Shown here: one piece after another, positions 43,118 to 62,497 of the stretch
How positions within the stretch are numbered: the stretch's first letter is position 1
Layout of the letters: each line of letters begins with the position of its first letter
Notes under the pieces: model-generated
Database searches by the model: none
Seen by the model: the letters and a program-made list of their open reading frames with translations, nothing else
What the model was told of the DNA's origin: nothing
Source: Nautiliaceae bacterium
Lineage (GTDB): Bacteria > Campylobacterota > Campylobacteria > Campylobacterales > Nautiliaceae
Assembly: GCA_039831155.1 (NCBI GenBank)
Contig: JBDONT010000026.1
Span: 1-64,000, forward strand
Length of the DNA stretch: 64,000 nt
Direction of reading: 5' to 3'
Program-made: the position numbers and the translations under genes

Positions 43118-44536
43118 TTAATCCGTATTAGGAATCAATCTTATATCCAATTGAGTAGGAATTTTTACCATTTCCTCTCCGGTTCTGAATCCGTCATTCA
43201 TTTTTATATTTTCAAAAAAATAAAAATTATTTTCACTAAAAGCGAAATTATTTAACGAAATAAAAGAAATAGGTGTTTTATATTCATATGAATTTAAATA
43301 ATTAAAGATTTTTTGAATTTTGCAAGCATTTAAAACCCGTGCCAAAGTAATATAATTCCCCTCTTTCAAATCTATATTTTTCCCTAAAAAATAGAGTTTA
43401 TTATCTTTTACAATCCTATAAACCACACTCAAATAATTTTTATTCAAAAATAAAATCCTATAATCCACACTGTCGGCTTTTGGAAACGAAGCTAAAAGTT
43501 TATTTACCTTTTTATCGTTTTCACTACCTTCAATTTGAGGATACGTACAGTTTATACCTTTTTTGGCAAACACCCTTACCGGTTCTTCTCTTGTAAAGAG
43601 TTTTTTATCATACACTAAAAAATAAACCCTCAAAGCGTTTTTATCTTTTATTACGAATAATTTAACTTTATCGTTATTCTCCAATCTCCCTTCATAAATA
43701 TCCTTTAATTTATCGCTTTGTGTATATCTTAAGTTCGTTACTTCAATAGGCGTATTTTTAAAAAATCTCAAGTTAATATCCACCCCTCCGTCATAAAGTG
43801 GCAAAACTGCCCTTGTAAACTGCAAAAAGTTAAGATAGCCACTTTTAGTCGTTTCGTTAATTTCAGATGCTTTAGAAAAGTTATGAGAAAGTGCCATTAT
43901 CCTAGAAGAAGTAAAAAACATATTATTAAAAAAAGACAAATTACTATCACTCACAGCCGTTAAAACGGCTCCCGTTTTAGTATTTACGATTAAAACCCCA
44001 CTATGCTTTGCAAATTGAATTTTATTTAACTCTTTTAACTGATTAAAATAAGCTTTTTGCAAGTTATAAAGAATATTTAAACTTACATTCCCGTCTCTTG
44101 AATTATTGGCCTCTTCCAGTCCACTGGCTCCAATTAGCATAGAAAAGTTACCCTCTTTTTTCGTCTTCAAAGTACCTAAAATAGCCCTAAACTCTTTAAG
44201 AGAAGTTCTTTTTTCTTCAAAAGGGCTCAAATTAACATCGCTAACTTTTATTAAAGAATCTATAAAAGAAGTTTTTTTAGTCAAAAGAGTAGAGTTTTTA
44301 TCAACTTTCTTTTTAAAATAAACCTCTAAAGAATTCAAAATAAATCTGTTAATCCCACTTCTATTTTCATCGCTTATATTCTCATCGCTTAAGTTCGAAT
44401 CGTTAAACAGATTTTTAATATCAAGTTTATAAATAATATAACTTTTCACTACAACCTTATTACCACTTAAAAACGTAGACTTTAAACTCACTCCAAACGC
44501 AAAAACCCCAATTAAAAGAGTTAGCAATAATTTCAT
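43118..44536 (-). CDS. Exported protein: degenerate class-B PBP-like region + DUF4163/RsiV-like C-terminal domain
   Basis: G.SGLE, G.V.L.I...LQ and V.IV..KTG.VL..VS; C-terminal YPQI...VN..L, YLSV and NIDLK.G. Confidence 0.55.
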   Translation of the reverse strand: MKLLLTLLIGVFAFGVSLKSTFLSGNKVVVKSYIIYKLDIKNLFNDSNLSDENISDENRSGINRFILNSLEVYFKKKVDKNSTLLTKKTSFIDSLIKVSDVNLSPFEEKRTSLKEFRAILGTLKTKKEGNFSMLIGASGLEEANNSRDGNVSLNILYNLQKAYFNQLKELNKIQFAKHSGVLIVNTKTGAVLTAVSDSNLSFFNNMFFTSSRIMALSHNFSKASEINETTKSGYLNFLQFTRAVLPLYDGGVDINLRFFKNTPIEVTNLRYTQSDKLKDIYEGRLENNDKVKLFVIKDKNALRVYFLVYDKKLFTREEPVRVFAKKGINCTYPQIEGSENDKKVNKLLASFPKADSVDYRILFLNKNYLSVVYRIVKDNKLYFLGKNIDLKEGNYITLARVLNACKIQKIFNYLNSYEYKTPISFISLNNFAFSENNFYFFENIKMNDGFRTGEEMVKIPTQLDIRLIPNTD

Positions 44537-48455: not shown

Positions 48456-49056
48456 AAGGAAATTCCTTTAAAAATTTTCTCACTTTTCCCACTTTCGCCC
48501 TCACATTTCCACTTACCCCCGAATACTTTATATATTCAAGCAGTTTTTTAGGAGAATCAAACTCCAACCTATAATGCAACACTTCCACTTCAGCCGATAA
48601 AATTTCAGCCGAAGTCAAAATCTCTTCTTTTGAAAAAATGGGTGATTTGATTTCCAAATAGTTATGAAGAGTCTTAAAAGTATTTGAAGTAAAAAGAGTC
48701 AGTAAAAAACTCCTCTCCAACCCCTTAATCTCCCTAAATACAAAATCCAAATCCAAAGCCCACTGCAAAGCGGAAAAAGAGACAATCTGTTCAAAATCAT
48801 ATCTTCTTATCTTCTCAAAACACTCTTTTTTATTAAAATCGGCAAGTAAAACAGTGCAAAGATTTCTCTTTAGCATCTCTTTAGAAGCATCCATGCCTAA
48901 ATAAAATTCAAACTTCTTATATTTGCAAAGCCCTTCACTCCCACACCCCAAATCCACTACCCTATTTTTTACAAACGGAAGATATCTTTTGATTATCTCT
49001 TTTTGAATTACGTTATACTTTCCGTAAGTGTTGGCGAACTTCTCAAAACTTTCCAT
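48406..49056 (-). CDS. BioC-like SAM methyltransferase
   Basis: F...A.TY.....Q, DLGCGS, S.SALQW and K.SGV motifs. Confidence 0.7.
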   Translation of the reverse strand: MESFEKFANTYGKYNVIQKEIIKRYLPFVKNRVVDLGCGSEGLCKYKKFEFYLGMDASKEMLKRNLCTVLLADFNKKECFEKIRRYDFEQIVSFSALQWALDLDFVFREIKGLERSFLLTLFTSNTFKTLHNYLEIKSPIFSKEEILTSAEILSAEVEVLHYRLEFDSPKKLLEYIKYSGVSGNVRAKVGKVRKFLKEFPFNFLEFEIVVLRSTLL

Positions 49057-49126
49057 ATTTTCTCTTTTTTTGATTTTATAATATCAAAAATTTTTACTAT
49101 AATTAAAAAAAAATTAAAGGCTCATT

Positions 49127-50395
49127 ATGTTTAAGATTATATCGGCTCTTTTTATAAGCGTACTTCTTTTTGCAGACTACTACACTGCCACAAACAGTTC
49201 TTTAAATTCAAATAAAACTTTAATCTTTACCCATAATTTCAAAATAGAAATAAACAACTCCAAAATTACCACAAACTCTAAAAAACTAAACGCCCTAATG
49301 CTAGGAAAGACCCCTAAAACATTCGAACAAACAGACATAACAAACGAAGACGATATGCTAGAGAGTTTTGAAACTTATAACCTGGCATACGTTTTAAAAA
49401 ACCGTCCTCAAGAAGAGTTTGTTTTAAAAACCCCAAAATATCTGCTTTTAATAACTCCTTCATACTCTACCGATTATATAGATGTATTCAATACCAAAAA
49501 AGAAGCGAACGTCTATACGTACGAAGTAAAAAAGGCTCTTCTTAAAGACCACTCTTTAGCAAAAAAACAGAATTTTTCCTTAACTCTATATACGGACGAA
49601 AACGACAATCTTTTAGCCGTTAAATTTTCAAGAGACCTAAAAATCCTAAAACAAGTAATAACCCCGAATCTTGAAAAATTCTTAGAAGAAAAATCCAAAT
49701 TAAAAACGGAAGTTGATAAATTTACCTTAGATGAAGGAAACTTATACCTCTCTTACGTATCAAAAACAAAAAACGGAGCGAAAAGATTAAAACTCACTTA
49801 TCAAAAATTTAAAAAACACTACATTAAAACTATGCTAAAAGCACCTATTTCACTATTTGACCCGGAAAACAAATCCCCTAGCATAGAAGAGGATATAGGA
49901 TTTTTAAGAGAGTATAAAAACGACTTATATGAAATTAAAAAAGTTCAAATAATCGATTCCCAGATCGATACGATGTGGATAAACAAACCTTCAAGCAGCG
50001 TAGTGGTGGTAGAATATAACGGACTAAACGACAAAACAATCCTCTCAAAAGATAAAAACCAACAGTTCTACGGAATTGAGGGAGTTTTATATCTTGTAAC
50101 GTGGATGAGATTAAACAACATCCATTCAAAAATCTTTACTTTTATAAACGGATATTTGCCGTTTGACTCCACAATGAAAGAGATATCAAAAAACAGCTAC
50201 GATATGGAAAAAAGCCACCATATAATCTATAAATTCACAACAGACGACAAAGGATTTATCACAAAAATTTTCTATCCTTCTTACAATATTTCCATACACT
50301 TAGAAAGCATAGATACGGATTTAACGCTTAAAAACAAAAAATACCTAAAAAAACTTATGCAGCAATTCGATATTAAATTAATTAAGGAGCAGTAG
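49127..50395 (+). CDS. Exported hypothetical protein (operon gene 1)
   Basis: Signal peptide ending LFA; TATAAT at 49098; beta-rich. Confidence 0.8.
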   Translation: MFKIISALFISVLLFADYYTATNSSLNSNKTLIFTHNFKIEINNSKITTNSKKLNALMLGKTPKTFEQTDITNEDDMLESFETYNLAYVLKNRPQEEFVLKTPKYLLLITPSYSTDYIDVFNTKKEANVYTYEVKKALLKDHSLAKKQNFSLTLYTDENDNLLAVKFSRDLKILKQVITPNLEKFLEEKSKLKTEVDKFTLDEGNLYLSYVSKTKNGAKRLKLTYQKFKKHYIKTMLKAPISLFDPENKSPSIEEDIGFLREYKNDLYEIKKVQIIDSQIDTMWINKPSSSVVVVEYNGLNDKTILSKDKNQQFYGIEGVLYLVTWMRLNNIHSKIFTFINGYLPFDSTMKEISKNSYDMEKSHHIIYKFTTDDKGFITKIFYPSYNISIHLESIDTDLTLKNKKYLKKLMQQFDIKLIKEQ

Positions 50396-51426
50396 TGAAA
50401 AAATTTTTACCTCTAATAGCTTTTATGGTACTGGGATGTTCTACCGGAAATAACGCCGTAGTCTCTTCTAAAACCATACAGGCAAAACAAGAAGAAATGT
50501 TATTAGACGAAGACCAGGAAGAAGACAACCAAGAACTCTATTTTCTAGCTACCAAAAATAAAATTCTCTACTCAAAAACAAGCTACACTACAAAAGACCA
50601 AATAGACTATTTTATAAACAATACGTTAGAAAACCTTTTTCGCCAAGCAAGACCGAGACTCCCTAAAAGACATCATCACAAACTAAATATAGCTATCTAC
50701 GTAGACGCTTCTTCTTACAAAAACGAAATAACAGACGCCGTGCAAGCTTTTATCTTAAAACACAAAAGATTTAATCTAGTCTCAATAGATTCTCAAAGTC
50801 TAAAAGCCTTAAGAAAAATCATAAACAAAGAAAAAGACTCCACCTATACGGGAGGATTTTATATAAACCCAAAACATCGTTCAGACATAGTAATTTTCAT
50901 AAAAGCCTCAAAAGATAAAAACAACCTTTATATAAAAGCAAAACTCATCTCAAAAAACGCTTCTATACTAGGGAGTATAAAAGAGAAAATAAACCTCAAT
51001 AAATCCCTAAAATGGGCTCAAGTAAAAGTACCTAGAAACACGGGAGGGTTTGAGAATTTTGAAATTATGATAAAACCGGTTTCAAAAAAAGAGTTTTACG
51101 GATTTGGAGACGACACGCCCGTTACAAACGTAACGTTCCAAAAAGCAAGTGCTTACTGTATGAAAATAAATGCCCAACTTTCACAACCTTATGTATTCGA
51201 ATATGCCAGAAGATCCCACGTAATACAAAAACCTCTAAACGTTTCTCAAGAAATGATAGCTCCTTACGATGATGAAGACCAGGATATTTATTATCAAGAG
51301 GGGGATAAATTAGAAAGCGAGGACGGAACTATTATCGTATTTGACTGGAATAAAGAAAAATACTATTCGGTATCAAACCTATACACCTCTTCTAATACCA
51401 CATTCAGATGTATAAAGGTTAAATAA
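50395..51426 (+). CDS. Lipoprotein: CsgG/LpoB-like middle domain + FGE/CLec-like C-terminal domain
   Basis: GTG start overlaps the previous stop; lipobox VLGC; RFNLV..., PVTNVTF..A..YC and terminal TFRC. Confidence 0.7.
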   Translation: MKKFLPLIAFMVLGCSTGNNAVVSSKTIQAKQEEMLLDEDQEEDNQELYFLATKNKILYSKTSYTTKDQIDYFINNTLENLFRQARPRLPKRHHHKLNIAIYVDASSYKNEITDAVQAFILKHKRFNLVSIDSQSLKALRKIINKEKDSTYTGGFYINPKHRSDIVIFIKASKDKNNLYIKAKLISKNASILGSIKEKINLNKSLKWAQVKVPRNTGGFENFEIMIKPVSKKEFYGFGDDTPVTNVTFQKASAYCMKINAQLSQPYVFEYARRSHVIQKPLNVSQEMIAPYDDEDQDIYYQEGDKLESEDGTIIVFDWNKEKYYSVSNLYTSSNTTFRCIKVK

Positions 51427-52256
51427 TGAAAAAACTATTATTTATGCTTCTTGCCACGTTTTTAACGGCAAAAACAAACATCTCCCTGGCAAAAACCCTA
51501 CTTCAGTTCCAAGGGGATGAATATAATATGTTATTGGCACCAAAAGAAATAGTAGTAGTAGGAAGAAAAAGAAAAACAAAAAAAGCAATCAACAAAGGCT
51601 ATAAAAGAGCTATCAGCGAACTTAAACGACAGATAAGGCTAAGGGATATAGACTTTCATCTTAAAGTCTTTACGCCAAAAGGCTCCGACTTACCTCAATA
51701 CAGAACCCAAGATATTCAGGCTTACAAAATTTTAAAAGAGATGTTAAAACAGCAAATAGCCATAAGACAACAACTCTTTCAAGATACTGAAATTAAAAAA
51801 CCCAAAAAAGTATCTGCAAAAGATATAGGACTTGACGATATAGGGGATGACGCTTTTGATATAAGCGACGATAAAGTAAAAATCAAAAAACAAATCCTAA
51901 GCCCGGCAGAAGCTTTTATAGGAGCCTATACCGAACTTAGCGAACTTTATAATCAAGAAGTTACCAAATTAAGCGATGTTTTACACCCTTTTAACATAAA
52001 CGGAAAACCGGTATTCAAACACGTTCATTCGGTTTTCGGTATGGCGTTTTTCCCGACAAAAGTCGCCGGAAGCATACATATGATAAAAATCTATATCGTA
52101 TTATGCAATATAAACACCGAATCGGATAAAAGCGTCCAAATTATCGCTAAAGAGATTCCTCCTTTTGAGTGGGACAGAAACTATCTATACATCAATGCGG
52201 CAACCGGAAAAGTTTTAAGACAGATTATTTCCGGAGTGCTTGGAGAAAATTTTTAA
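51426..52256 (+). CDS. Exported hypothetical protein
   Basis: Signal peptide; TAATG coupling. Confidence 0.75.
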   Translation: MKKLLFMLLATFLTAKTNISLAKTLLQFQGDEYNMLLAPKEIVVVGRKRKTKKAINKGYKRAISELKRQIRLRDIDFHLKVFTPKGSDLPQYRTQDIQAYKILKEMLKQQIAIRQQLFQDTEIKKPKKVSAKDIGLDDIGDDAFDISDDKVKIKKQILSPAEAFIGAYTELSELYNQEVTKLSDVLHPFNINGKPVFKHVHSVFGMAFFPTKVAGSIHMIKIYIVLCNINTESDKSVQIIAKEIPPFEWDRNYLYINAATGKVLRQIISGVLGENF

Positions 52257-52265
52257 AGGAAAAGT

Positions 52266-53828
52266 ATGAAAAAGCTTATTTTACTGTTTAGTGCCATATT
52301 TTTTATAGGATGCGGAAGTAATCAGTTAAGCCCTCACAGCCTAAAAAAAGAGTTAAAAAAAGAACATAAAGAGTATTCCCACTGGTTTTTGGACCAAAGT
52401 GAAAGAGTGCCTTTAAAAATAATTGTTTTAGGATACGTAGACCCGGAAGTTAAACACACAAAAGAGTATACAAGATATATCAATCTCTTTAAACAAATCA
52501 AAAAAAAACCGACTATTTTAAACAAAATCACAAACAGCAATTTTACCGATAAATTCTGGCCTATAAAAGTCGTAAATTTCGACTCAAAAGAAATTTATCT
52601 TCAAAAATTCGTAGCGGTTTATAAAAACAGATTCAAAGATAAAGAAGTTTTAAACGACATTTTAAGACCGGATGTGGAAAAACCTTCTGCAGAAATTTTG
52701 ATAAGACTTAATTATCAAGACTTAAAAAAAGGCAAATTAACGCTTGAAGGATACAAAACAATAAAAACCCCCAATTACGCAAGAAACTCCTTTTACTATT
52801 ACCTTATAAAACCAAACTACTCTTTGCTGACACCTCTTAAACAAAAAGAGGCTATTATAAATTCCGTTTCGGCAGTACTTAAACTCTCTATCCCTCAATA
52901 TGTCTCACTGGACCTAAAAAACCTTATAAAAACCCACCCCGTTATGAAAATATTTACGAAAAAAAACGAAAATTTCGTTTTTAAAGGCTACATCAAAAAA
53001 CACATCATCTGGAACGAAATCACCCCAAAACAGCTTTTATACACAAAGCCTCTTCCTTATGAGGATTTAAAAACCCTTTATGAGACTAAATATATACCTT
53101 TTGAAAAAGAGAGTGATTTAAGCTTAAAAGAAATAAACGAACTGACAAAAGTTTTAAACACCTCTTTAATAGACCCTCTTATTCTATACGGATACAACGA
53201 CACCGACACCCTAAACCTTCCTAGCAAAAAATACAACGACTTTTTAATAATCTATCCTAAAAAAACATACGATTTAGACGAAATTTACTTTACTTCAAAC
53301 AACCAGCTGCAACAAAACGGATATAAACTAATCTACAAAAACAGCAAATTCATTCAACAAGACTTGGATACTAAATTCGGATTTAAAGTAGTTAATTATA
53401 TTTTATCCTTTAAAGACCCTTCAAAAGCCAAACTAAATAACGTTTACGTGCAAATAAAAGATTCCAAAGTTACAAGATTGAGTGCTACAAAAATACCTTA
53501 CATTGCAATAAAATTCGACCTAACACACTATCAAAAAGATACGTTTTTATACAGTTACCATAACTATCACTATTTATACAAAGAAAAATTCGGTGGGTGT
53601 ACCAGAATACTATTTTTATTCAAAGCATCATACGACCCTATATGTTACTCTCAATTCTCAACGGGAGTGGGTATAGGACTTGGATTTATGGATTTACTGT
53701 TTTGGACTATTACGTACGGAATAGGAGCAGGGACGTATTTTGTAAGCTATGATAAAGACACGATGATAAAAGCCATCAAAAACAGTGGCTTTAGAGATTT
53801 GGAAATATTTAAAACGGAGTTAAAATGA
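52266..53828 (+). CDS. Lipoprotein, paralog of 58173 gene
   Basis: Lipobox FIGC; shared AVYKNRF.DKE.LNDILR domain. Confidence 0.8.
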   Translation: MKKLILLFSAIFFIGCGSNQLSPHSLKKELKKEHKEYSHWFLDQSERVPLKIIVLGYVDPEVKHTKEYTRYINLFKQIKKKPTILNKITNSNFTDKFWPIKVVNFDSKEIYLQKFVAVYKNRFKDKEVLNDILRPDVEKPSAEILIRLNYQDLKKGKLTLEGYKTIKTPNYARNSFYYYLIKPNYSLLTPLKQKEAIINSVSAVLKLSIPQYVSLDLKNLIKTHPVMKIFTKKNENFVFKGYIKKHIIWNEITPKQLLYTKPLPYEDLKTLYETKYIPFEKESDLSLKEINELTKVLNTSLIDPLILYGYNDTDTLNLPSKKYNDFLIIYPKKTYDLDEIYFTSNNQLQQNGYKLIYKNSKFIQQDLDTKFGFKVVNYILSFKDPSKAKLNNVYVQIKDSKVTRLSATKIPYIAIKFDLTHYQKDTFLYSYHNYHYLYKEKFGGCTRILFLFKASYDPICYSQFSTGVGIGLGFMDLLFWTITYGIGAGTYFVSYDKDTMIKAIKNSGFRDLEIFKTELK

Positions 53829-54424
53829 AAAGATTTTTAATATTTCTAGGAGCTGTTTTTATTATAGGATGTTCTAAATCCCCTCAACAAACAAAAATAA
53901 ACCTACTTAACGTCCTGGATGAAAATACATCCGTAAAAGATTCAAGCGAACTCTATTTTCACGACACAAAAGGCAAAAAATTCTACTCTCATACAAAACC
54001 ATCCTTAAAACAAGGGTGGGTAAGTATCACTCTCTATACAAAAAAAGGAAAAAAAAGATTTGAAATTATGAAATCTCCCGTAAGCTTAAAAGACTTTAAA
54101 ATATCAAATTCAAGCTCCCCCGTAACAAACATATCTTTTAAAACAATGGCTAAATACTGTATGAATAAAAACGCAACTTTGGCTACTATTTTCGTGTTCG
54201 AAAAAGCCAGAAAAAAACACCTCCTCTCAAAACCTCCCGTAAAATACGAAATTTTAGCCCCGGTGGATGAAGAAGATGACGATATTTACATAAACCAAAA
54301 AGACAAAGTAATAAACAAAGACAACACCGTTATAAGGTTTGATTGGCAAAAAGAGATATATGAAGAGGTACCGATTATTTTTAAATCTAAAAACACAACT
54401 TTTAGATGTATGAGGGAAAAATGA
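53825..54424 (+). CDS. Lipoprotein with FGE/CLec-like domain, paralog of 50395 gene
   Basis: Lipobox IIGC; FEIM..PVS, PVTNISF...YC and NTTFRC. Confidence 0.75.
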   Translation: MKRFLIFLGAVFIIGCSKSPQQTKINLLNVLDENTSVKDSSELYFHDTKGKKFYSHTKPSLKQGWVSITLYTKKGKKRFEIMKSPVSLKDFKISNSSSPVTNISFKTMAKYCMNKNATLATIFVFEKARKKHLLSKPPVKYEILAPVDEEDDDIYINQKDKVINKDNTVIRFDWQKEIYEEVPIIFKSKNTTFRCMREK

Positions 54425-55689
54425 GAAAAATTATTTTAATTTTTCTGTTTTCAAGCCTTTTTGCACTACCTCCCTGGACACAAGGAGTGGATAAAAAAGA
54501 CGGAGTTTATTTTGTAGGAGTTTCCAAGTGGTACCCTCTAAACGACACTTTTACCAAAAAAACAGCCCTAAAAGACGCCCTAAGCGATGCTTACTCCCAA
54601 ATAGCCGGTTATTTCGGAATTAAAGTCACATCCTCAACCGATATTCAAAAATACCTAACAAATAAAGGAATTTCAAGAAATATCAAAAAAGAAGTAAAAA
54701 CAAAAACATCCCTTTTTATTTTTAACATAAAACCCATAAAAAGATATACCGAAGAAAAAGAGGATTATTACAGAATCTGGGTGCTGGTAAAACTTGATAA
54801 AAATACCGAACGTCAGATAAAAGAAAATCTAAAAAAAGACAAACAAAAACTAAACCTCTTAAAAACACAAATAAACAAAGCCATAAACAACCAAAACTTA
54901 TTTCTAGCCCAAAATCTCCTAATAAAAGCAAAAAGCCTTCAAAGTGCCGTGTTTGACGATGAACTGCCTCTTTTGGAAAAAAGAATCAAAACACTAAAAG
55001 AAAACCTAATAATCCCTACTATCTCTTTAGATAAAACTCTTTATAAACCGAACGAAGAGATAAAAATAAAAGCCTCCCTAAACCGTCCAGGGTATTTATA
55101 TCTTTTTTACGACAACAAAGACTCGATTGAAATGTTCTTACCGAACGAATTTCAAAACAACTACATTCAAAACAGACTCATAACCTTCCCAAACGACGAC
55201 ATTTCCATAATCGCTTATAAAAACTCTATAAACTACCCGAATAAAATCATAGCCTTAGGTTCTAAACACTACATAGATTTTAGCTTCTTAAGTGACGACA
55301 AAGACGGGGTTTATATCTTCTATAACAAACAAAAAGTAAAACAAAAAATAAAAGAGTGCTTAAAAAAAGGCGAATGTTTCGTAGTGGTTAAAAGGTTTAA
55401 AATAAAAAATAAAAACACAAAAATAAATATCTCAATTCAAGGACCTTTTAAAAAAGAGATTTTAGCGTTTTTAAGAAAATTTAAGATAACATCAACCCCT
55501 AACGGCAAAAAAATAGTTATTAAAATATTCCCTAAAACCTCCTATTCAAACGAACTTCAAACATACATAAAAACCTACAAAATAGTAGCACTTTACAACC
55601 ACCGAAAAGATATAGAATTTGTAGCCGACAAAGAGGATTTGCTTTATAAAATCAAAGAGATAATTCAATGTTTCATATCCCAAAATTAA
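54421..55689 (+). CDS. Exported LPP20-like + DUF4384-like protein
   Basis: P.W...YFVGVS...A..DA...IA; YKPNE.I.I......GYLYLF......FLPN...FP. Confidence 0.6.
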   Translation: MRKIILIFLFSSLFALPPWTQGVDKKDGVYFVGVSKWYPLNDTFTKKTALKDALSDAYSQIAGYFGIKVTSSTDIQKYLTNKGISRNIKKEVKTKTSLFIFNIKPIKRYTEEKEDYYRIWVLVKLDKNTERQIKENLKKDKQKLNLLKTQINKAINNQNLFLAQNLLIKAKSLQSAVFDDELPLLEKRIKTLKENLIIPTISLDKTLYKPNEEIKIKASLNRPGYLYLFYDNKDSIEMFLPNEFQNNYIQNRLITFPNDDISIIAYKNSINYPNKIIALGSKHYIDFSFLSDDKDGVYIFYNKQKVKQKIKECLKKGECFVVVKRFKIKNKNTKINISIQGPFKKEILAFLRKFKITSTPNGKKIVIKIFPKTSYSNELQTYIKTYKIVALYNHRKDIEFVADKEDLLYKIKEIIQCFISQN

Positions 55690-56750
55690 TTCTTAGCCTC
55701 TTTTTGGACTCTCAAAGCAGACTTTTAAAATTTGCCTTTTATACACTCCCTATAGCTCTTTTTTTTTCAATCACCTCTTTTTTGTTTGTAAATAATATCT
55801 TAAAAAGTTACAAAAATTACCTAATCAATTCTTACATAGGCTCCCAAGGAAGAGTTACGATAATCTCAACCCCACCATTTATAAAAAAACTTCAAGAAGT
55901 CTCAAAAAAACACCACCTAATCTTCTCTCCCAAAGTAACTTTCAAAAGTTTTATTGTTTTTAAAAACAAAACTCCCATTATAAAATCAGCCCAAATAGTA
56001 ATCTTAAATCAATCCTACCTCCAAAAAAAATTCCACTCAAACGACATATTTATAAACAAAGCCCTAAAAAACGGTTTTGGGGATATGAATATAAGCTCTT
56101 TTAAAAAGTTACAATACGACAAAAAAAGTATCCCGATAAAAAAGATAAAAATAATAGACACTGGGTTTTTAGGAAACTATCCTACTATATTTTTATCTTT
56201 TAAAAACGCTAAAAAACTCTTTCCCTCTTTAAAAACGAACCAAATAGAATATCTAAACAAAAACACTAAATTCATAAAAACACTAGTGGAAAAAACGGCA
56301 AAACAATACGGGGTTTTAGAGTATAAAATAAAAGATTTAATTGAAGACACCAAAGAGACAAAAGAGTTTTTTCAAAAAATCTCCGTCATTCAAAAGTTTA
56401 TTATGGGATTTATTTTCATACTTGCCTTAGGAATAGTTATTTTAAGCGTAGCTATAATGATAGAATTTAAAAAATCCTCCCTTAAAACCCTACATCTAAT
56501 AGGTATGAGCAAAAAAGAGTTAAACCTTACTATCTCCTTAATAGTATTAAGCACAATTAGTATTATTTTAACCTTATCCGTGATAAGCACCAAAGCCTTA
56601 GAGAGTCTGTTTTTAAAAATTACCGGATTTGGAAGTGACTTTTTTGTGCCTGTCGGTTTTAAAGAGATAGGATTTGTTTTTGTTTTAGGAGTAATTTTAA
56701 GTATGATAACTTATATTTCATCCTCACTTGCTTTTAAAGGAAAAGAATGA
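55668..56750 (+). CDS. LolC/LolE-like (FtsX/MacB-type) ABC permease
   Basis: TM1, large periplasmic domain, three C-terminal TMs; K...L..L..IG.S motif. Confidence 0.72.
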   Translation: MFHIPKLILSLFLDSQSRLLKFAFYTLPIALFFSITSFLFVNNILKSYKNYLINSYIGSQGRVTIISTPPFIKKLQEVSKKHHLIFSPKVTFKSFIVFKNKTPIIKSAQIVILNQSYLQKKFHSNDIFINKALKNGFGDMNISSFKKLQYDKKSIPIKKIKIIDTGFLGNYPTIFLSFKNAKKLFPSLKTNQIEYLNKNTKFIKTLVEKTAKQYGVLEYKIKDLIEDTKETKEFFQKISVIQKFIMGFIFILALGIVILSVAIMIEFKKSSLKTLHLIGMSKKELNLTISLIVLSTISIILTLSVISTKALESLFLKITGFGSDFFVPVGFKEIGFVFVLGVILSMITYISSSLAFKGKE

Positions 56751-57481
56751 TTTTTTTACTTTTTTTTATTCCTCTTTTCGCTTTTGAAAAAGTGTTTATA
56801 AATCTTGATAAAAACATATCCATACCTAAACTTAACGACAAAAACATAAAAGATTTCAGCGTCTCTTATACTCTAACTCCTACTAAATTTTATATTTCAA
56901 AATATGAAATTACCAAAAAAGAGTATAACGAATACCTAAAAGCCATTCACAAAAAACCGATAAAAATAGACGAAGACGAAGAAAACGAACCTATAACAAA
57001 CGTATCGTTTTTTGAAGCTCAAGAGTTTTGCAGATTCTACAAAGGAAGAGTTCCAACGGAAAAAGAGTGGACAATAGCAGCAAGCGTAAAACTTGCGAAA
57101 TCAAAATGTTTTGAGTTTATAAAAAAATACATCTTCACACCATTTCCCACTCAAAAATACCCCTTAGCCCCAAACGACCCTCAAATTAAATGTATGCTAA
57201 AAGAAGACGACGAAATAGAACCCTCTCTTATAGGAAGCGAATTTTTGGAAGTTCAATACTCTTACGAAAACATAAACGGCATATACGGAATGCTTGGAAA
57301 CGCTTTTGAATGGGTGGACGATAAGGTTAATTATTTCAATCACACCTTCTACAAAATAAAAGGAGGCAGCTATAACGATAAAAATATGCCGGTATTTTTC
57401 GATAGCAGAGTTTACAGCCTGCTAAAACCGAATACCAAAAGAGTAAACGTAGGATTTCGATGCGTATGGGAGACAAAATGA
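56747..57481 (+). CDS. FGE/SUMF1-family domain protein, non-catalytic
   Basis: FYISKYEIT, P.TNVS..EA..FC, R.PTE.EW, GM.GN..EW, KGGSY and GFRC motifs. Confidence 0.9.
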   Translation: MIFLLFFIPLFAFEKVFINLDKNISIPKLNDKNIKDFSVSYTLTPTKFYISKYEITKKEYNEYLKAIHKKPIKIDEDEENEPITNVSFFEAQEFCRFYKGRVPTEKEWTIAASVKLAKSKCFEFIKKYIFTPFPTQKYPLAPNDPQIKCMLKEDDEIEPSLIGSEFLEVQYSYENINGIYGMLGNAFEWVDDKVNYFNHTFYKIKGGSYNDKNMPVFFDSRVYSLLKPNTKRVNVGFRCVWETK

Positions 57482-58170
57482 TAAAAGCGATAAATTTAAA
57501 AAAAAGTTTCAATAAAGAAGTTATTTTTCAAAACGTAAATTTCGAAGCCAAAAAAGGAGACTTTTGCGTAATTACCGGAAAAAGTGGTAGTGGAAAAACG
57601 ACTCTTTTAAACCTCATCTCCACAATAGACGAAATAAAAGAGGGAAAACTTATAATAAACAACACCGACATAACAAACCTAAACGAATACGAAAGGGCAA
57701 AATTCAGAGCCAAAAATATAGGTTTTATTTTCCAATCATACGCTCTTATTCCGGAGTTTGACATTATAAAAAACTGCACTATTCCACTTATTATGTCAAA
57801 TGTACCTAAACGCAAAGCCGAACAAAAAGCAAAAGAGATAATTTTAAAATTCATCCCCGAAGCCGATGAAAAGTTTTTAAAAAAAAGACCTCCTCAACTA
57901 AGTGGAGGACAACAACAAAGAGTGGCTATTGCAAGGGCGTTAATTCACAACCCTCCTATCATAATAGCCGACGAACCTACGGCAAACCTAGACAAAGAAT
58001 CTGCAAAAGAAGTAAAAGAGCACTTAAAAAAATTATCCCTAAATTCAAAATGCGTAATCGTAGTAACGCACGAAGAGGAGTATTTGGAAAAATACGCAAA
58101 CGTAGCTTATCAATTCGTAAAAGACCCGTCAAACAAAGCAAAATCAATTCTTAAAAAAATAAAAGGCTAA
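57478..58170 (+). CDS. LolD-like ABC ATPase
   Basis: GKSGSGKTTL, RA.FR...IGFIFQ...L, LSGGQQQR, DEPTANLD and VTH motifs. Confidence 0.92.
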   Translation: MIKAINLKKSFNKEVIFQNVNFEAKKGDFCVITGKSGSGKTTLLNLISTIDEIKEGKLIINNTDITNLNEYERAKFRAKNIGFIFQSYALIPEFDIIKNCTIPLIMSNVPKRKAEQKAKEIILKFIPEADEKFLKKRPPQLSGGQQQRVAIARALIHNPPIIIADEPTANLDKESAKEVKEHLKKLSLNSKCVIVVTHEEEYLEKYANVAYQFVKDPSNKAKSILKKIKG

Positions 58171-58172
58171 AA

Positions 58173-61001
58173 ATGAGATATCTATTTATTATCGTTTTGA
58201 TATTCTTAGGATGTCAAAACCCCTCACCTTCAAAATACAAAACCCTCTATGAAAAAACAAAAGCCAAGAACTCATCCTACTCCCAATGGCAGGAGAAAAA
58301 AACACCTCTAAAAATTATAGGAATAATCTACATAAACCCTCTAACCACTCAAACAAAAGAGTTCAAAAACTACACAAAACTTCTCTCTTACATTGCAAAA
58401 CACCCTAATTACCTAAACTTAAACCAAAAATTCACTTCCGTTCAATTTATAAAAAAATCTTCCGACCAAAAATTTAATGCCGTTTACAAAAACAGATTCG
58501 AAGACAAAGAGATATTAAACGACATCTTAAGAAATTACCCGGACACCCCCTCATCCGAAATAGCTATTATGCTTGATTATGAAGAGCTTCAAAAAGGAAA
58601 CCTGGTAATTAAAGGCTACAAAAGCGTAAAAATAAAAGGGAAAAAAAGAAACTCTTACTTTTTTACCCTAAAAAAACCGGAATACTCCAAACTTAACAAA
58701 AAACAAAAACAACAAGCACTAATAAACTCAATAAAAGCCGTTTTAAACCTATCAATTCCTAATTACATCTCAATAAACACCCAAAACTTTATACAAAAAG
58801 AGAAATTTAAAAAAATCTACTCTACCAAAAACGGCGTTATAAAAAAAGAGACCTTTTTTAACCCTATAAAAAACGCCCTTAACAAACTTAAATTTAAAAA
58901 AAGAATGATTTTATCAAACAACGAATCGGTATATCTTTTACACAACTTTTTTCCTCAGAGATTCAGTATTTATAAGAATTTCGCAGCTATCCAAAATAGA
59001 AAACAAATTGTAATAATAAATCTGTTAACCGGAAAAATCATAAAAAAAATTCCAACCGACATTTCAATACATCAAATAAAATTAAACGAAAATCTAATAA
59101 TCGTAGGCTATAAAAGCTCCCTAATATCAAGCAAAAACTTCTTAGAAGTAATAAACCCTAAAACAAAAGAGACCGTTTTAAAAAAAGAAATCCCCTCTTT
59201 AACGACAGCCCTTACCGACAAAGCCGTTTACTATTTAGACAAAAACAAAAAAGAACTTAACATTTTATTCCTAAAAGACTTTACAACAAAAACAATTAAA
59301 CTTCCTCAATCGTCTTATAAAATTTTTACAAACGACAAAACGATTATCCTAAAAGGATACAACCAAATATTAACCCTAAATGCCAATACTTTAAGAGTTA
59401 TAAAATCAACCTATATTCGACCGACTTACCACTTTACGTCTTTAAAATACTCCCCTAACCTTCAAACAAAAATAAAAATAACCTATCCTAACCGTTTAAC
59501 TAATATACAAATCTCAACCCCTACTAAAAAAACGACAATTTCCACAAACAACAGACTTTTGACATTGGCTTTTTCCAAAGACTCAAAATATGTGGCTTTG
59601 GCGTTTAACGTAATAAAAAATAAAATCTTCTTTTCAAACAATTTCAAAATAGATATTTACGATTTACAATCTCTAAAAAAAATAAACACCCTTTATTTTG
59701 AAGCGTTTAAAATGGCATTTTACAATCACAACCTCGTAATTTTTTCAAAAGACACCATAAGAATCTTAGATATACGTAAAAAACCGAATAAAACCCTCGT
59801 TTCCTCAAAAGATAAAATAACCTTCTCTCCAAATAAAAACTACTTTTTATTAAAAAACACCTATAAAAAAATCCAATTTGAAGTATATGACCTAAACTTT
59901 AAAAAACTTCTCTCAAAAAAACTATATAAAAAAGACGGCTACTCGGAACTGCTCATAACAAACAAATACGCCGTTTATTTCTACTCCCCTTGGGGATATT
60001 CACCAAATAAAAAATCGCTAATTCACTTTTACAACCTAAAAACAAAAAAAGAAAAAGAGATTTGGGCTAATGTAGCCTCTTTTAAAGTTTCTCCCTGTGG
60101 GGATGATGTTTGTCTTATAAACACCAAAGATTATCAACTCTATAAAATCTCCCCAAACGGCGTAAAAAAACTCTCAAACTCTTTACCGAAAAAATTTATC
60201 GTCTCTTTAAAAGTAAGCCCGGATTCTCAAAAAGCCGTAATAAACTACTTCAAAAAAACATTAATCTACGACCTTAAAACCTCCAAACAAACGCTAATAA
60301 ACACAAAAATAAACAAATCGTTTGCTATAACGGATAAATTTCTTTTTTATATCCAAAAAAATACTCTAAACAAACTATCCCTAACCACCCTAAAAACCGT
60401 AAAAAAAGAAATAAATACTCCAGTATCCCCTAAACTGCTAGCAGATAATAAACACATTTACATAACTTCATCGATTTATAATAAAAACTTTACGCAAGTA
60501 TTCGATTATAACCTAAACCTAATCACAATACTGCCTTATAAAATAGTAAATTCCACCAAAAACTACCTAATAAGCAAAACCGGAAGTACCCTTACATTAA
60601 TAAACAAAAGTTTTTTAAACGTAAACTTAAAACCTATAGACGAAAAAATAGCTAACATAAAAAACAGCTTTTTTAATAAAAGCAAAAAAGAGATAAAACA
60701 ACTAATCTTCACAACTCCCCTAAACCCAAAAGATTTACTTGTTTTAAAAACTACTAATTACATAACTTCGTTTAAAACAACGCTTCGTGCAAAGGAAGTG
60801 GAAAAAATAGCAGATATTTTAGGAGTCGACTTTTTAGACCCTCTTTTGGCTTATAATGTAAGCTTTTTAAAAAAATACGCACTTAAAGTCGTAAAATACT
60901 CAAACACCTACGAAACAATCTTAAAACCCTTTTACGATATAAACGAAATATTTTTCAATTCGCCTTTTGATTACAAAAAAGCCGGATTTCAAAGGAGATA
61001 G
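58173..61001 (+). CDS. Large lipoprotein with probable beta-propeller region, paralog of 52266 gene
   Basis: Lipobox FLGC; WD40-like blades (LAFSKDSKYVA, FSPNKNY, VSPDSQKA, IYDL.S/T.K). Confidence 0.78.
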   Translation: MRYLFIIVLIFLGCQNPSPSKYKTLYEKTKAKNSSYSQWQEKKTPLKIIGIIYINPLTTQTKEFKNYTKLLSYIAKHPNYLNLNQKFTSVQFIKKSSDQKFNAVYKNRFEDKEILNDILRNYPDTPSSEIAIMLDYEELQKGNLVIKGYKSVKIKGKKRNSYFFTLKKPEYSKLNKKQKQQALINSIKAVLNLSIPNYISINTQNFIQKEKFKKIYSTKNGVIKKETFFNPIKNALNKLKFKKRMILSNNESVYLLHNFFPQRFSIYKNFAAIQNRKQIVIINLLTGKIIKKIPTDISIHQIKLNENLIIVGYKSSLISSKNFLEVINPKTKETVLKKEIPSLTTALTDKAVYYLDKNKKELNILFLKDFTTKTIKLPQSSYKIFTNDKTIILKGYNQILTLNANTLRVIKSTYIRPTYHFTSLKYSPNLQTKIKITYPNRLTNIQISTPTKKTTISTNNRLLTLAFSKDSKYVALAFNVIKNKIFFSNNFKIDIYDLQSLKKINTLYFEAFKMAFYNHNLVIFSKDTIRILDIRKKPNKTLVSSKDKITFSPNKNYFLLKNTYKKIQFEVYDLNFKKLLSKKLYKKDGYSELLITNKYAVYFYSPWGYSPNKKSLIHFYNLKTKKEKEIWANVASFKVSPCGDDVCLINTKDYQLYKISPNGVKKLSNSLPKKFIVSLKVSPDSQKAVINYFKKTLIYDLKTSKQTLINTKINKSFAITDKFLFYIQKNTLNKLSLTTLKTVKKEINTPVSPKLLADNKHIYITSSIYNKNFTQVFDYNLNLITILPYKIVNSTKNYLISKTGSTLTLINKSFLNVNLKPIDEKIANIKNSFFNKSKKEIKQLIFTTPLNPKDLLVLKTTNYITSFKTTLRAKEVEKIADILGVDFLDPLLAYNVSFLKKYALKVVKYSNTYETILKPFYDINEIFFNSPFDYKKAGFQRR

Positions 61002-62162
61002 ATGAAAAAACCAAGCTTAACCTTTTCTCTTTTTAAAAGCTCCTTTTTTCTTGTTTTTATTTTATATCTTTTGACGCTGATAATTTTAAACACCATTTTA
61101 ATATTAAAAGAGTCTTACAAAACATCCCTTGAAAACGAATTTGCAACCAAACAGCCCCATATAAAAATAACCTATATAAACTCAAACTTAAAAGACATCT
61201 CAAAAGATTTGAAATTGATAAAAAAAATCCCCCTTGTAAAGGCTATAACCCCTTTTAGCGAAGGGGAAGAGTTTTTCGAATCCATAGGCTACAAAAAAAC
61301 AGGAGCCAACTCTTTATATAACGGCAATATTAAAATAATAGGAATTTTAACAGACAGTTTCGTATACGATTTTTTCGATATGAAGTTTTTGCCTTTTGGG
61401 GATTTTCAAGTTCCTTTGACTGTAGTTGAATTTATATATAAATTCAGAACAACCCCCAATCTCATAATTTTTAATCAAACGCTATTTAAATCATATTTTC
61501 CGGTAATAGAATCAACAGAAGATTTTAGCTTTAAAAACAAACATTCTCTTAATGGCAAACTATGCGGAGTGTTTAACGACTTTAGTAACTCCCCTACAAT
61601 CTATACCAACTTATACTTTGCAAACAGACTATTAAACAAACCTTTAAATCACGCAGACGGATTTTTCGTAAATGCAACTTCCATAAAAAAAATAGACGCA
61701 CTTTTAGAAAACCTAAAAAAAATCCTCCCCAAAAACAGATTTATAATCCACTCGTGGCTTGAGCTTAGAAAAAAGCAGTTTGATATGTTTTATCTTTTTT
61801 CTATGCTCTCTTTAATCATCATTACAGCCATTTTTCTTTTGTCTTTGCTTTTTGCGGTTTTAATAATTTATCATTCAATAGTAAAAAAAAGCTATCAATT
61901 ATCGGTTCTTTTTACACTGGGTTACAACCTTAAAAAAGAGATTATGTGTATCATTTCGGTTATTATCTCCATAGCGACGATTATTAATTTTTACACCGTT
62001 TCAAACCTAACCCCAAAAATCCTAAAAACCCTAAACCTCCCAACCTCCAACACCCTAAAGACGGCTTTTTACGCAACTTGTTTTTTAGATTTGTTTTTTA
62101 TTACGGTAAGTTTTTTTATTATAAAAACCACTTATGAATTAAAAGCAAAAAGCGTCTTTTGA
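61002..62162 (+). CDS. Second LolC/LolE-like ABC permease
   Basis: TM1-...QPHIKI, periplasmic domain, SW......F..., and V.K......L.TLG motifs. Confidence 0.75.
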   Translation: MKKPSLTFSLFKSSFFLVFILYLLTLIILNTILILKESYKTSLENEFATKQPHIKITYINSNLKDISKDLKLIKKIPLVKAITPFSEGEEFFESIGYKKTGANSLYNGNIKIIGILTDSFVYDFFDMKFLPFGDFQVPLTVVEFIYKFRTTPNLIIFNQTLFKSYFPVIESTEDFSFKNKHSLNGKLCGVFNDFSNSPTIYTNLYFANRLLNKPLNHADGFFVNATSIKKIDALLENLKKILPKNRFIIHSWLELRKKQFDMFYLFSMLSLIIITAIFLLSLLFAVLIIYHSIVKKSYQLSVLFTLGYNLKKEIMCIISVIISIATIINFYTVSNLTPKILKTLNLPTSNTLKTAFYATCFLDLFFITVSFFIIKTTYELKAKSVF

Positions 62163-62197
62163 TTTTATGATATAATTTCGCAAAAAGGTCTTACAAA

Positions 62198-62497
62198 ATG
62201 ACAGGAGTTTTATTCGTATTTCAAATCGTGCTTGTAATAGCGATAGTTATTTTAGTTCTTCTACAAAAATCAGAATCTATGGGGCTTGGAGCGTATTCAA
62301 GCTCAAACAATACGGTATTCGGTGCCAAAGGTCCTATGAACTTTTTGACAAAAGCCACAATGGTACTTGGACTTTTATTCGTTTTAAACACTTTAACACT
62401 GGTTTATCTATACAACAAACAACCAAACGTTTCCTCTTTAGATAAAGTAAAAACTGAAAAAACAATCCCACCGGTTCCTAAAGCACCTACAAACTAA
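62198..62497 (+). CDS. secG: Preprotein translocase SecG
   Basis: VLLQ.S...GLG, FG..G..NFLTKAT; own extended -10 TGATATAAT at 62168. Confidence 0.93.
   Translation: MTGVLFVFQIVLVIAIVILVLLQKSESMGLGAYSSSNNTVFGAKGPMNFLTKATMVLGLLFVLNTLTLVYLYNKQPNVSSLDKVKTEKTIPPVPKAPTN

Follow-up and report, generated by a model that had tools for sequence, protein, structure and literature searches.

A lipoprotein family with a constant N-terminal domain and variable WD40-type passengers in a gene island of a Nautiliaceae bacterium

The 64,000-nucleotide stretch of a Nautiliaceae bacterium genome analyzed here (GenBank assembly GCA_039831155.1, contig JBDONT010000026.1, positions 1 to 64,000; hereafter the window) encodes two lipoproteins of 520 and 942 amino acids, A520 and B942, which resemble each other at their N termini and again farther along, and which differ by some 600 residues carried between these regions in B942 alone. 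How can one scaffold accommodate so large an insert, and what might such variation be for? A first-pass annotation, made from the sequence without database searches, had proposed a constant scaffold with swappable passenger domains. The constant scaffold stands, with the refinement that it offers two slots rather than one; the architecture of constant N domain, second block (block 2) and two slots is well supported. Slot content does change among homologs, but it does not draw on many folds: nearly all slot-1 passengers are propellers of differing size and sequence, swapped or lost. As to function, our preferred reading, to which we give a probability of roughly 0.45, is that A520 and B942 are polymorphic lipoproteins with different non-catalytic binding heads, likely interchangeable clients of LolCDE-like export or display machinery encoded by the surrounding gene island.

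The shared scaffold and its two slots

The resemblance between the two lipoproteins, noticed at first by eye, is significant in both regions. BLASTP aligns the N-terminal parts at 40% identity over 248 residues (E 3e-47) and the second block, beginning at residue 255 of A520 and residue 842 of B942, at 32% identity over 100 residues (E 2e-8), a score reached by none of 2000 shuffles. The extra residues of B942 had been called WD40-like, and they do consist of approximately 40-aa four-stranded blade repeats that are modeled as a propeller fold; support comes from the sequence repeats, which are independent of the model, and from the model itself, in which residues 604-817 mostly have a predicted local distance difference test (pLDDT) score below 50. 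This insert has no match to the Pfam WD40 family (PF00400); canonical WD40 repeats occupy the same slot in homologs (e.g., 263 bits in P0004). In the predicted models block 2 folds alike with the insert (B942) or without it (A520), and helices stand at the junctions in both. An assembly artefact was ruled out, because homologs from other assemblies share the same junctions and one strain contig spans the whole of B942. A520 and B942 are the only family members in this genome (G000), and neither has a meaningful match in Pfam or NCBIfam (0 families at E<=0.1).

A search of 1.84 billion representatives recovered 47 matches to the family, and a word-based search 7. The named members belong to Campylobacterota, and one locus, 96% identical to A520, derives from an uncultured Nautiliales bacterium; the family, which belongs to bacteria of deep-sea vents, is rare and known from metagenome assemblies only. 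The following counts rest on 43 proteins, comprising 37 of the homologs P0001-P0050 longer than 500 aa, A520, B942, and four locus proteins; P0001 (a near-copy of A520) and P0008 (B942) were left out of the 37, and 11 shorter proteins were excluded as likely fragments. Both blocks are present in all 43 members, of which 37 carry a lipobox pattern. Homologs vary at exactly the site of the insert, as the idea of exchangeable passengers implied: the spacer between the blocks (slot 1) measures 21-26 aa in 8 members, 57-63 aa in 13 and 196-624 aa in 22, the long class being mostly 316-467 aa and B942 the longest. A second slot, following block 2, holds 0-614 aa (short in 12, long in 31), is often WD40, and often ends in KE[YF] or MNxx[YF]. 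All four main combinations of slot 1 and slot 2 occur. The order of elements at the junction is common to all members (hairpin, out-helix, passenger, return helix, KQLLYT-like start of block 2), and at least one WD40 blade is matched in 21 of the 22 slot-1 passengers. Two helices make up slot 1, probably as a stalk that can be empty, closed or loaded at its tip.

Several homologs merit separate notice. P0005, a 454-aa protein that looks complete although it is one of those excluded from the counts, has the N domain, the out-helix, four WD40 repeats and the family terminal motif without block 2, a layout that would fit a deletion between slot-1 and slot-2 WD40 repeats. One member carries added PEGA-like and Lcl_C domains; at a metagenome locus (L017:4625-8408) an A520-type tail is followed by PEGA-like repeats and an Lcl_C domain, and an o343-type gene there has a PEGA domain replacing its usual N part. 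P0014, P0031 and P0036 have different architectures, and a 29029-base contig is the longest listed for each; they therefore probably represent one more multi-paralog locus.

The folds of the constant regions are less readily named. The N domain (A520 residues 41-210) is predicted to be an alpha/beta domain of TolB-N/CsgG/LptE-like fold, with 4-11% identity to the TolB-N/CsgG/LptE/PqiC/PelC/TraT fold group. Foldseek returned no match at E<=0.001 for the A520 model among PDB and viral models, a sequence search of the PDB with the family profile gave nothing under E 0.1, and the ESM Atlas score for A520 was 0.76, from a poor and uninformative Atlas model. Comparison of the N domain with the N part of the core lipoprotein o343 yielded a probability of 0.4%, and complex prediction for A520 (28-365) with o276 and o343 scored 0.28 against a mark of 0.32, which counts neither for nor against an interaction. 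The suggestion that block 2 is a degenerate C-type lectin (CLec)/FGE domain is unproven by profile and profile-profile comparison. FGE-sulfatase (PF03781) is matched in none of 38 homologs at E<=1e-5, nor in A520 or B942 at E<=0.1; hhalign assigns block 2 a probability of 0.6% against 30 canonical FGE domains and of 0.5-0.9% against the o343/o199 domain, where the positive control (the o343/o199 domain against FGE) reached 80.9%. Our own profile test against CLec gave z-scores of -0.3 and 0.9, which are not significant. The accompanying argument from a terminal GFRC-like motif was mistaken: the AGFQ of B942 aligns with an internal NGYK of A520, and the block-2 column across members is G[YF]K rather than the FRC kept in o343, o199 and o244.

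Exchange of slot content and distribution of the family

The clearest evidence for swapping is the discordance between the N domain and the regions beyond it. Among four paralogs in G484 (Sulfurimonas sp.), N-domain identity is 84-91% and identity in the 400-aa tails 20-30%, with a sharp fall past residue ~400; the replaced tails begin at a sharp boundary and are equally long, unrelated open frames. Between P0014 and L011, identity is 76% in the N domain, 23% in slot 1 and 29% in block 2. By this discordance, the N domain is the constant part, with block 2 retained but diverging faster. On the N-domain tree, slot-1 state requires 7 changes (minimum 2; shuffled mean 18), of which, for the passenger state, 4 are forced by well-supported branches, and supported sister pairs differ in slot 1 (P0025 with a propeller and P0026 empty; P0024 with a hairpin and L012 with a propeller). 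Slot-1 states are also clustered by clade. The tree is unrooted and does not distinguish gain from loss, including a propeller gained by B942 from one lost by A520. At the borders of the slots, neither repeats nor recombination sites exceed background.

The family occurs in 2 of 61 relatives; of 30 family genomes, only those two contain o276, the most conserved of the unassigned core genes described below. Among 401 genomes of the phylum the family is confined to G000, three weak partial matches aside (E 3e-4 to 1e-3) whose coverage is limited to the signal peptide or to WD40 columns; L007, the one examined, contains neither block. The core gene o343 is likewise restricted to G000 among the 401. 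Family and core are, by homology search, absent together. Two Sulfurimonas sp. genomes encode 9 (G484) and 4 (G485) N-domain genes together with all eight core genes, in differing order and at differing sites; 3 of the 9 and none of the 4 paralogs lie inside the cluster, the others standing alone or two together amid housekeeping genes. The entire G484 cluster, with a Sel1-repeat gene, is flanked by a MoxR-type AAA gene on one side and DUF58/vWA genes on the other (L082:3-719, L086:731-2900); its insertion site is the third, distinct from those in G000 and G485. The G484 ortholog of o343 is apparently split into two frames (L082:14673-15640) by a frameshift or assembly error, the other core genes being intact.

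Selection on the island can be gauged against G005, where the island is intact and ten genes other than B942 have ratios of replacement to silent change (pN/pS) of 0.05-0.29; A520 stands at 0.13, with no excess replacement change. Island genes are thus shown to be under purifying selection. B942 is the exception in G005 (L004:13599-13823): an in-frame deletion of 2604 bp, which fuses codon ~29 with codon ~900, has left ~74 codons, with 14 replacement changes against 1 silent change and the lipoprotein signal retained. This remnant is a decaying pseudogene, and B942 is dispensable in G005. A 96%-identical contig from an epibiont metagenome run (X3) spans B942 with frame-preserving indels only. 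Single members, therefore, come and go while the core stays.

The island and its machinery

Both lipoproteins lie in an 11-gene run (Table 1). The run is recognized as an island because in each of the 5 relatives checked only 70-120 bp separate the flanking methyltransferase gene from secG; its GC content is 0.313, that of the genome 0.320.

Table 1. Features of the island and of the two lipoproteins (positions in the window; res, residues)
Feature	Position	Strand	Description
Island	49127..62162	+	13 kb, between methyltransferase gene and secG
o422	49127..50395	+	Core; secreted, without family
o343	50395..51426	+	Core; lipoprotein with C-terminal degenerate FGE/CLec domain
o276	51426..52256	+	Core; secreted, without family; most conserved unassigned gene (44 clusters)
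A520	52266..53828	+	520-aa lipoprotein; slot 1 empty (23-aa spacer), slot 2 a 164-aa tail
A520 constant N region	52371..52991	+	res 36-242; alpha/beta domain (41-210) of predicted TolB-N/CsgG/LptE-like fold, plus beta-hairpin
A520 block 2	53028..53333	+	res 255-356; possibly remainder of a reduced CLec-like domain starting at res ~207
A520 slot-2 tail	53334..53825	+	res 357-520; common only to other empty-slot members; without family match
o199	53825..54424	+	Lipoprotein; degenerate FGE/CLec domain (45% identity with the o343 domain)
o427	54406..55689	+	Core; DUF4384 plus LPP20/FlgT-N-like N part (weak matches in orthologs)
o360	55668..56750	+	Core; FtsX-family permease, 4 hydrophobic segments
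o244	56747..57481	+	Core; FGE-sulfatase (PF03781, 78 bits)
o236	57460..58170	+	Core; LolD/FtsE-like ATPase of ATP-binding cassette (ABC) type
B942	58173..61001	+	942-aa lipoprotein; 624 aa in slot 1, nothing in slot 2
B942 constant N region	58275..58862	+	res 35-230; pLDDT mostly 80-98
B942 outgoing stalk helix	58863..58925	+	res 231-251
B942 blades	58950..60623	+	res 260-817; ~14 degenerate WD40-type blades, likely two 7-bladed propellers; second half low-confidence in model
B942 returning stalk helix	60630..60695	+	res 820-841
B942 block 2	60696..60998	+	res 842-942; pLDDT 75-95; secondary-structure order as in A520
o386	61002..62162	+	Core; LolC/E-like permease (TIGR02212 E 5e-7, far below cut-off)

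The best marker for the system is o276, whose matches stop at a sharp cut-off of 44 clusters, similar to the size of the A520/B942 family (two weak matches covering only residues 66-164 are not counted). It is 52-67% identical across most of these clusters, bears an acidic DDIGDDAFDI stretch, and has no family match, nothing under E 0.1 in a PDB profile search and no match when tested against the Atlas. For o422, which has no Pfam match and likewise nothing under E 0.1 in a profile search of PDB sequences, the lead is a set of Atlas scores of 0.81-0.85, under the Atlas bar, to DUF620/DUF1571/MucB-RseB clusters, which we take to be LolA-like folds. o199 was not found in G485. Contigs from RNA libraries cover parts of the island, though contigs of this kind cannot show transcription, and a scan for promoters and terminators stayed at chance level. 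Both island ends (49066-49079 and 62157-62169) carry TTTTGATTTTAT beside a TATAAT-like hexamer, perhaps because part of the secG promoter region was duplicated, or else by coincidence in AT-rich DNA. Outside the island, a 472-aa secreted-looking protein is encoded at 43118-44536 on the minus strand, with no Pfam or NCBIfam match under E 0.03.

The island resembles LolCDE-LolA in that genes for a LolD-like ATPase and two FtsX/LolC-like permeases lie next to those for lipoproteins. Scores, however, fall far short of the equivalog cut-offs (LolD 189.4 against 307.75 bits; LolC/E 29 against 362.45 bits), and the island ABC is additional to a housekeeping LolC/E-like gene that lies beside secA on another contig (C20), where a 166-aa open reading frame (ORF) is taken for LolA by synteny only. 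Other type VII ABC systems too have dedicated periplasmic partners (PMC12646458).

TolB joins a TolB-N domain to a beta-propeller. Its propeller, however, is six-bladed and C-terminal, in a tol-pal context; here the protein has a lipid anchor and belongs to a multigene family, the optional propeller is internal, of 7-blade WD40 type, on a helical stalk within the scaffold and followed by block 2, and the neighbors are the island core, with no Tol/Pal. Polymorphic toxins and variable surface lipoproteins are familiar constant/variable families, and the present family shares with them a constant N part, an exchangeable distal part and dispersed paralogs; it differs in having two independent slots, one of them internal, and non-catalytic propeller heads, with no toxin/immunity pairs seen. 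CLec lipoproteins diversified by diversity-generating retroelements (DGRs) include TvpA of Treponema and LdtA of Legionella (PMC10907252). Variation here is by whole modules instead of point hypermutation. A DGR was rejected, with no DGR reverse transcriptase or template repeat found as far as the genomes are complete: no long near-identical repeat lies within 49000-62300, the CLec-type genes have no other tblastn match in the genome, and RVT_1 occurs in 1 of 4 genomes, as a 621-aa reverse transcriptase on another contig (C32). The latter, in G000 (L089:1366-3231), is fused to HisKin-conflict (PF22561) and has a small ORF after it. It is a retron-like defence candidate, and searches of G005, G484 and G485 did not find it.

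Possible roles of the lipoproteins

Constant domain, variable heads, dispersed copies and fixed core together look like the client family of a dedicated machine. The same parts could, by analogy, form an envelope sensor similar to TagQRST, in which the ABC, an FGE protein and outer-membrane lipoproteins relay a signal, the propellers act as sensing heads, and the output is something other than a type VI secretion system (T6SS). This is unlikely, if the strongest of the alternatives. In the Pseudomonas aeruginosa H1-T6SS (PMC13713981), one cluster encodes the outer-membrane lipoprotein TagQ, TagR with its FGE domain (127-359), and TagST, an ABC-like complex that needs its ATPase; the island matches this parts list with its type VII ABC and its one clear and two degenerate FGE proteins. 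It differs in having two permeases, three FGE-type proteins, four more unassigned genes and a variable paralog family. Against a sensor of this kind, neither a T6SS nor a linked PpkA kinase was found in four genomes, three of them incomplete (VipB/TssC in 0 of 4); a kinase is present in no cluster and nowhere in G485, G000 and G005 offering only a 185-aa weak match; and the three clusters read contain no cytoplasmic output gene.

It is less probable that the paralogs are periplasmic immunity or decoy binders, anchored by the constant domain, whose heads neutralize an incoming effector or phage protein. FGE-like proteins have reportedly been described as T6SS immunity proteins, and the patchy occurrence of the island, the expansion of paralogs, their constant/variable layout and the rapid loss of members are all typical of conflict genes, but immunity needs no conserved eight-gene core with an ABC, no toxin gene stands beside the orphans in L011, L012, L014 and L083-L085 (ORF starts were read, most without a family scan), and replacement changes in A520 are not in excess when G000 is compared with G005. 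FGS/CLec domains and propellers do recur in conflict systems (PMC7159879, PMC10907252). Less likely again is a ring or lattice of CsgG/PelC/TraT type formed by the N domain, with core lipoproteins or with itself, in which paralogs would be mixed subunits with stalks radiating propellers; against this, the same fold is also found in the monomeric LptE, TolB-N and CadC. We regard as improbable, and least favored of all, that there is no link to the machinery and that size variation is drift in an expanded family of accessory lipoproteins tolerating WD40 insertions in a permissive loop. The loss of B942 in G005, the clade-wise clustering of slot states, the lost tail of L012_8420 and a G485 copy ending at 188 aa would suit drift; the co-occurrence and joint absence of family and core, the exchange of tails at a sharp boundary for equally long open frames, and the intact B942 of the 96%-identical strain, with its frame-preserving indels, would not.

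If A520 and B942 are instead clients of the island machinery, the core would recognize or dock the lipid-anchored N domain, which could explain both the high N-domain identity among paralogs and its retention by dispersed orphans. Separately from the housekeeping Lol genes, the ABC formed by o236, o360 and o386 would move or position the lipoproteins at the outer membrane, and o422 may serve as a carrier. The two helices may pair as a stalk holding the propeller off the scaffold, such that propellers could be gained, swapped or lost without unfolding it. Diversity would arise by duplication and recombination rather than by a DGR, and the propellers may bind proteins or glycans of surfaces, hosts or neighbors. 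A bolder version, which is doubtful, would make this a horizontally moving envelope machine of vent Campylobacterota. Its eight core genes, including a type VII ABC of its own, would export and display a repertoire of receptor lipoproteins that are recognized by their constant N domain and varied in combination at the two slots; one slot would be a stalk set into a vestigial C-type-lectin domain, with entire WD40 propellers taking the place of the point hypermutation by which DGRs vary the same fold.

The ingredients are already known: TolB-N-like lipoprotein folds, WD40 propellers, FGE proteins, type VII ABCs and constant/variable families. The family itself, the two-slot stalk design and the eight-gene core were found neither in family libraries nor in the literature searched, with supplements and subscription papers outside its scope. 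The family provides a natural series, unusual in bacterial lipoproteins, of one scaffold with zero, one or two stalked propellers and an independent second slot, a scaffold that could be useful for display. Its tie to an eight-gene type VII ABC cluster offers a testable case for a dedicated route of lipoprotein sorting or sensing in Campylobacterota, and paralog repertoires in vent and epibiont populations may be one way for these bacteria to vary what they bind.

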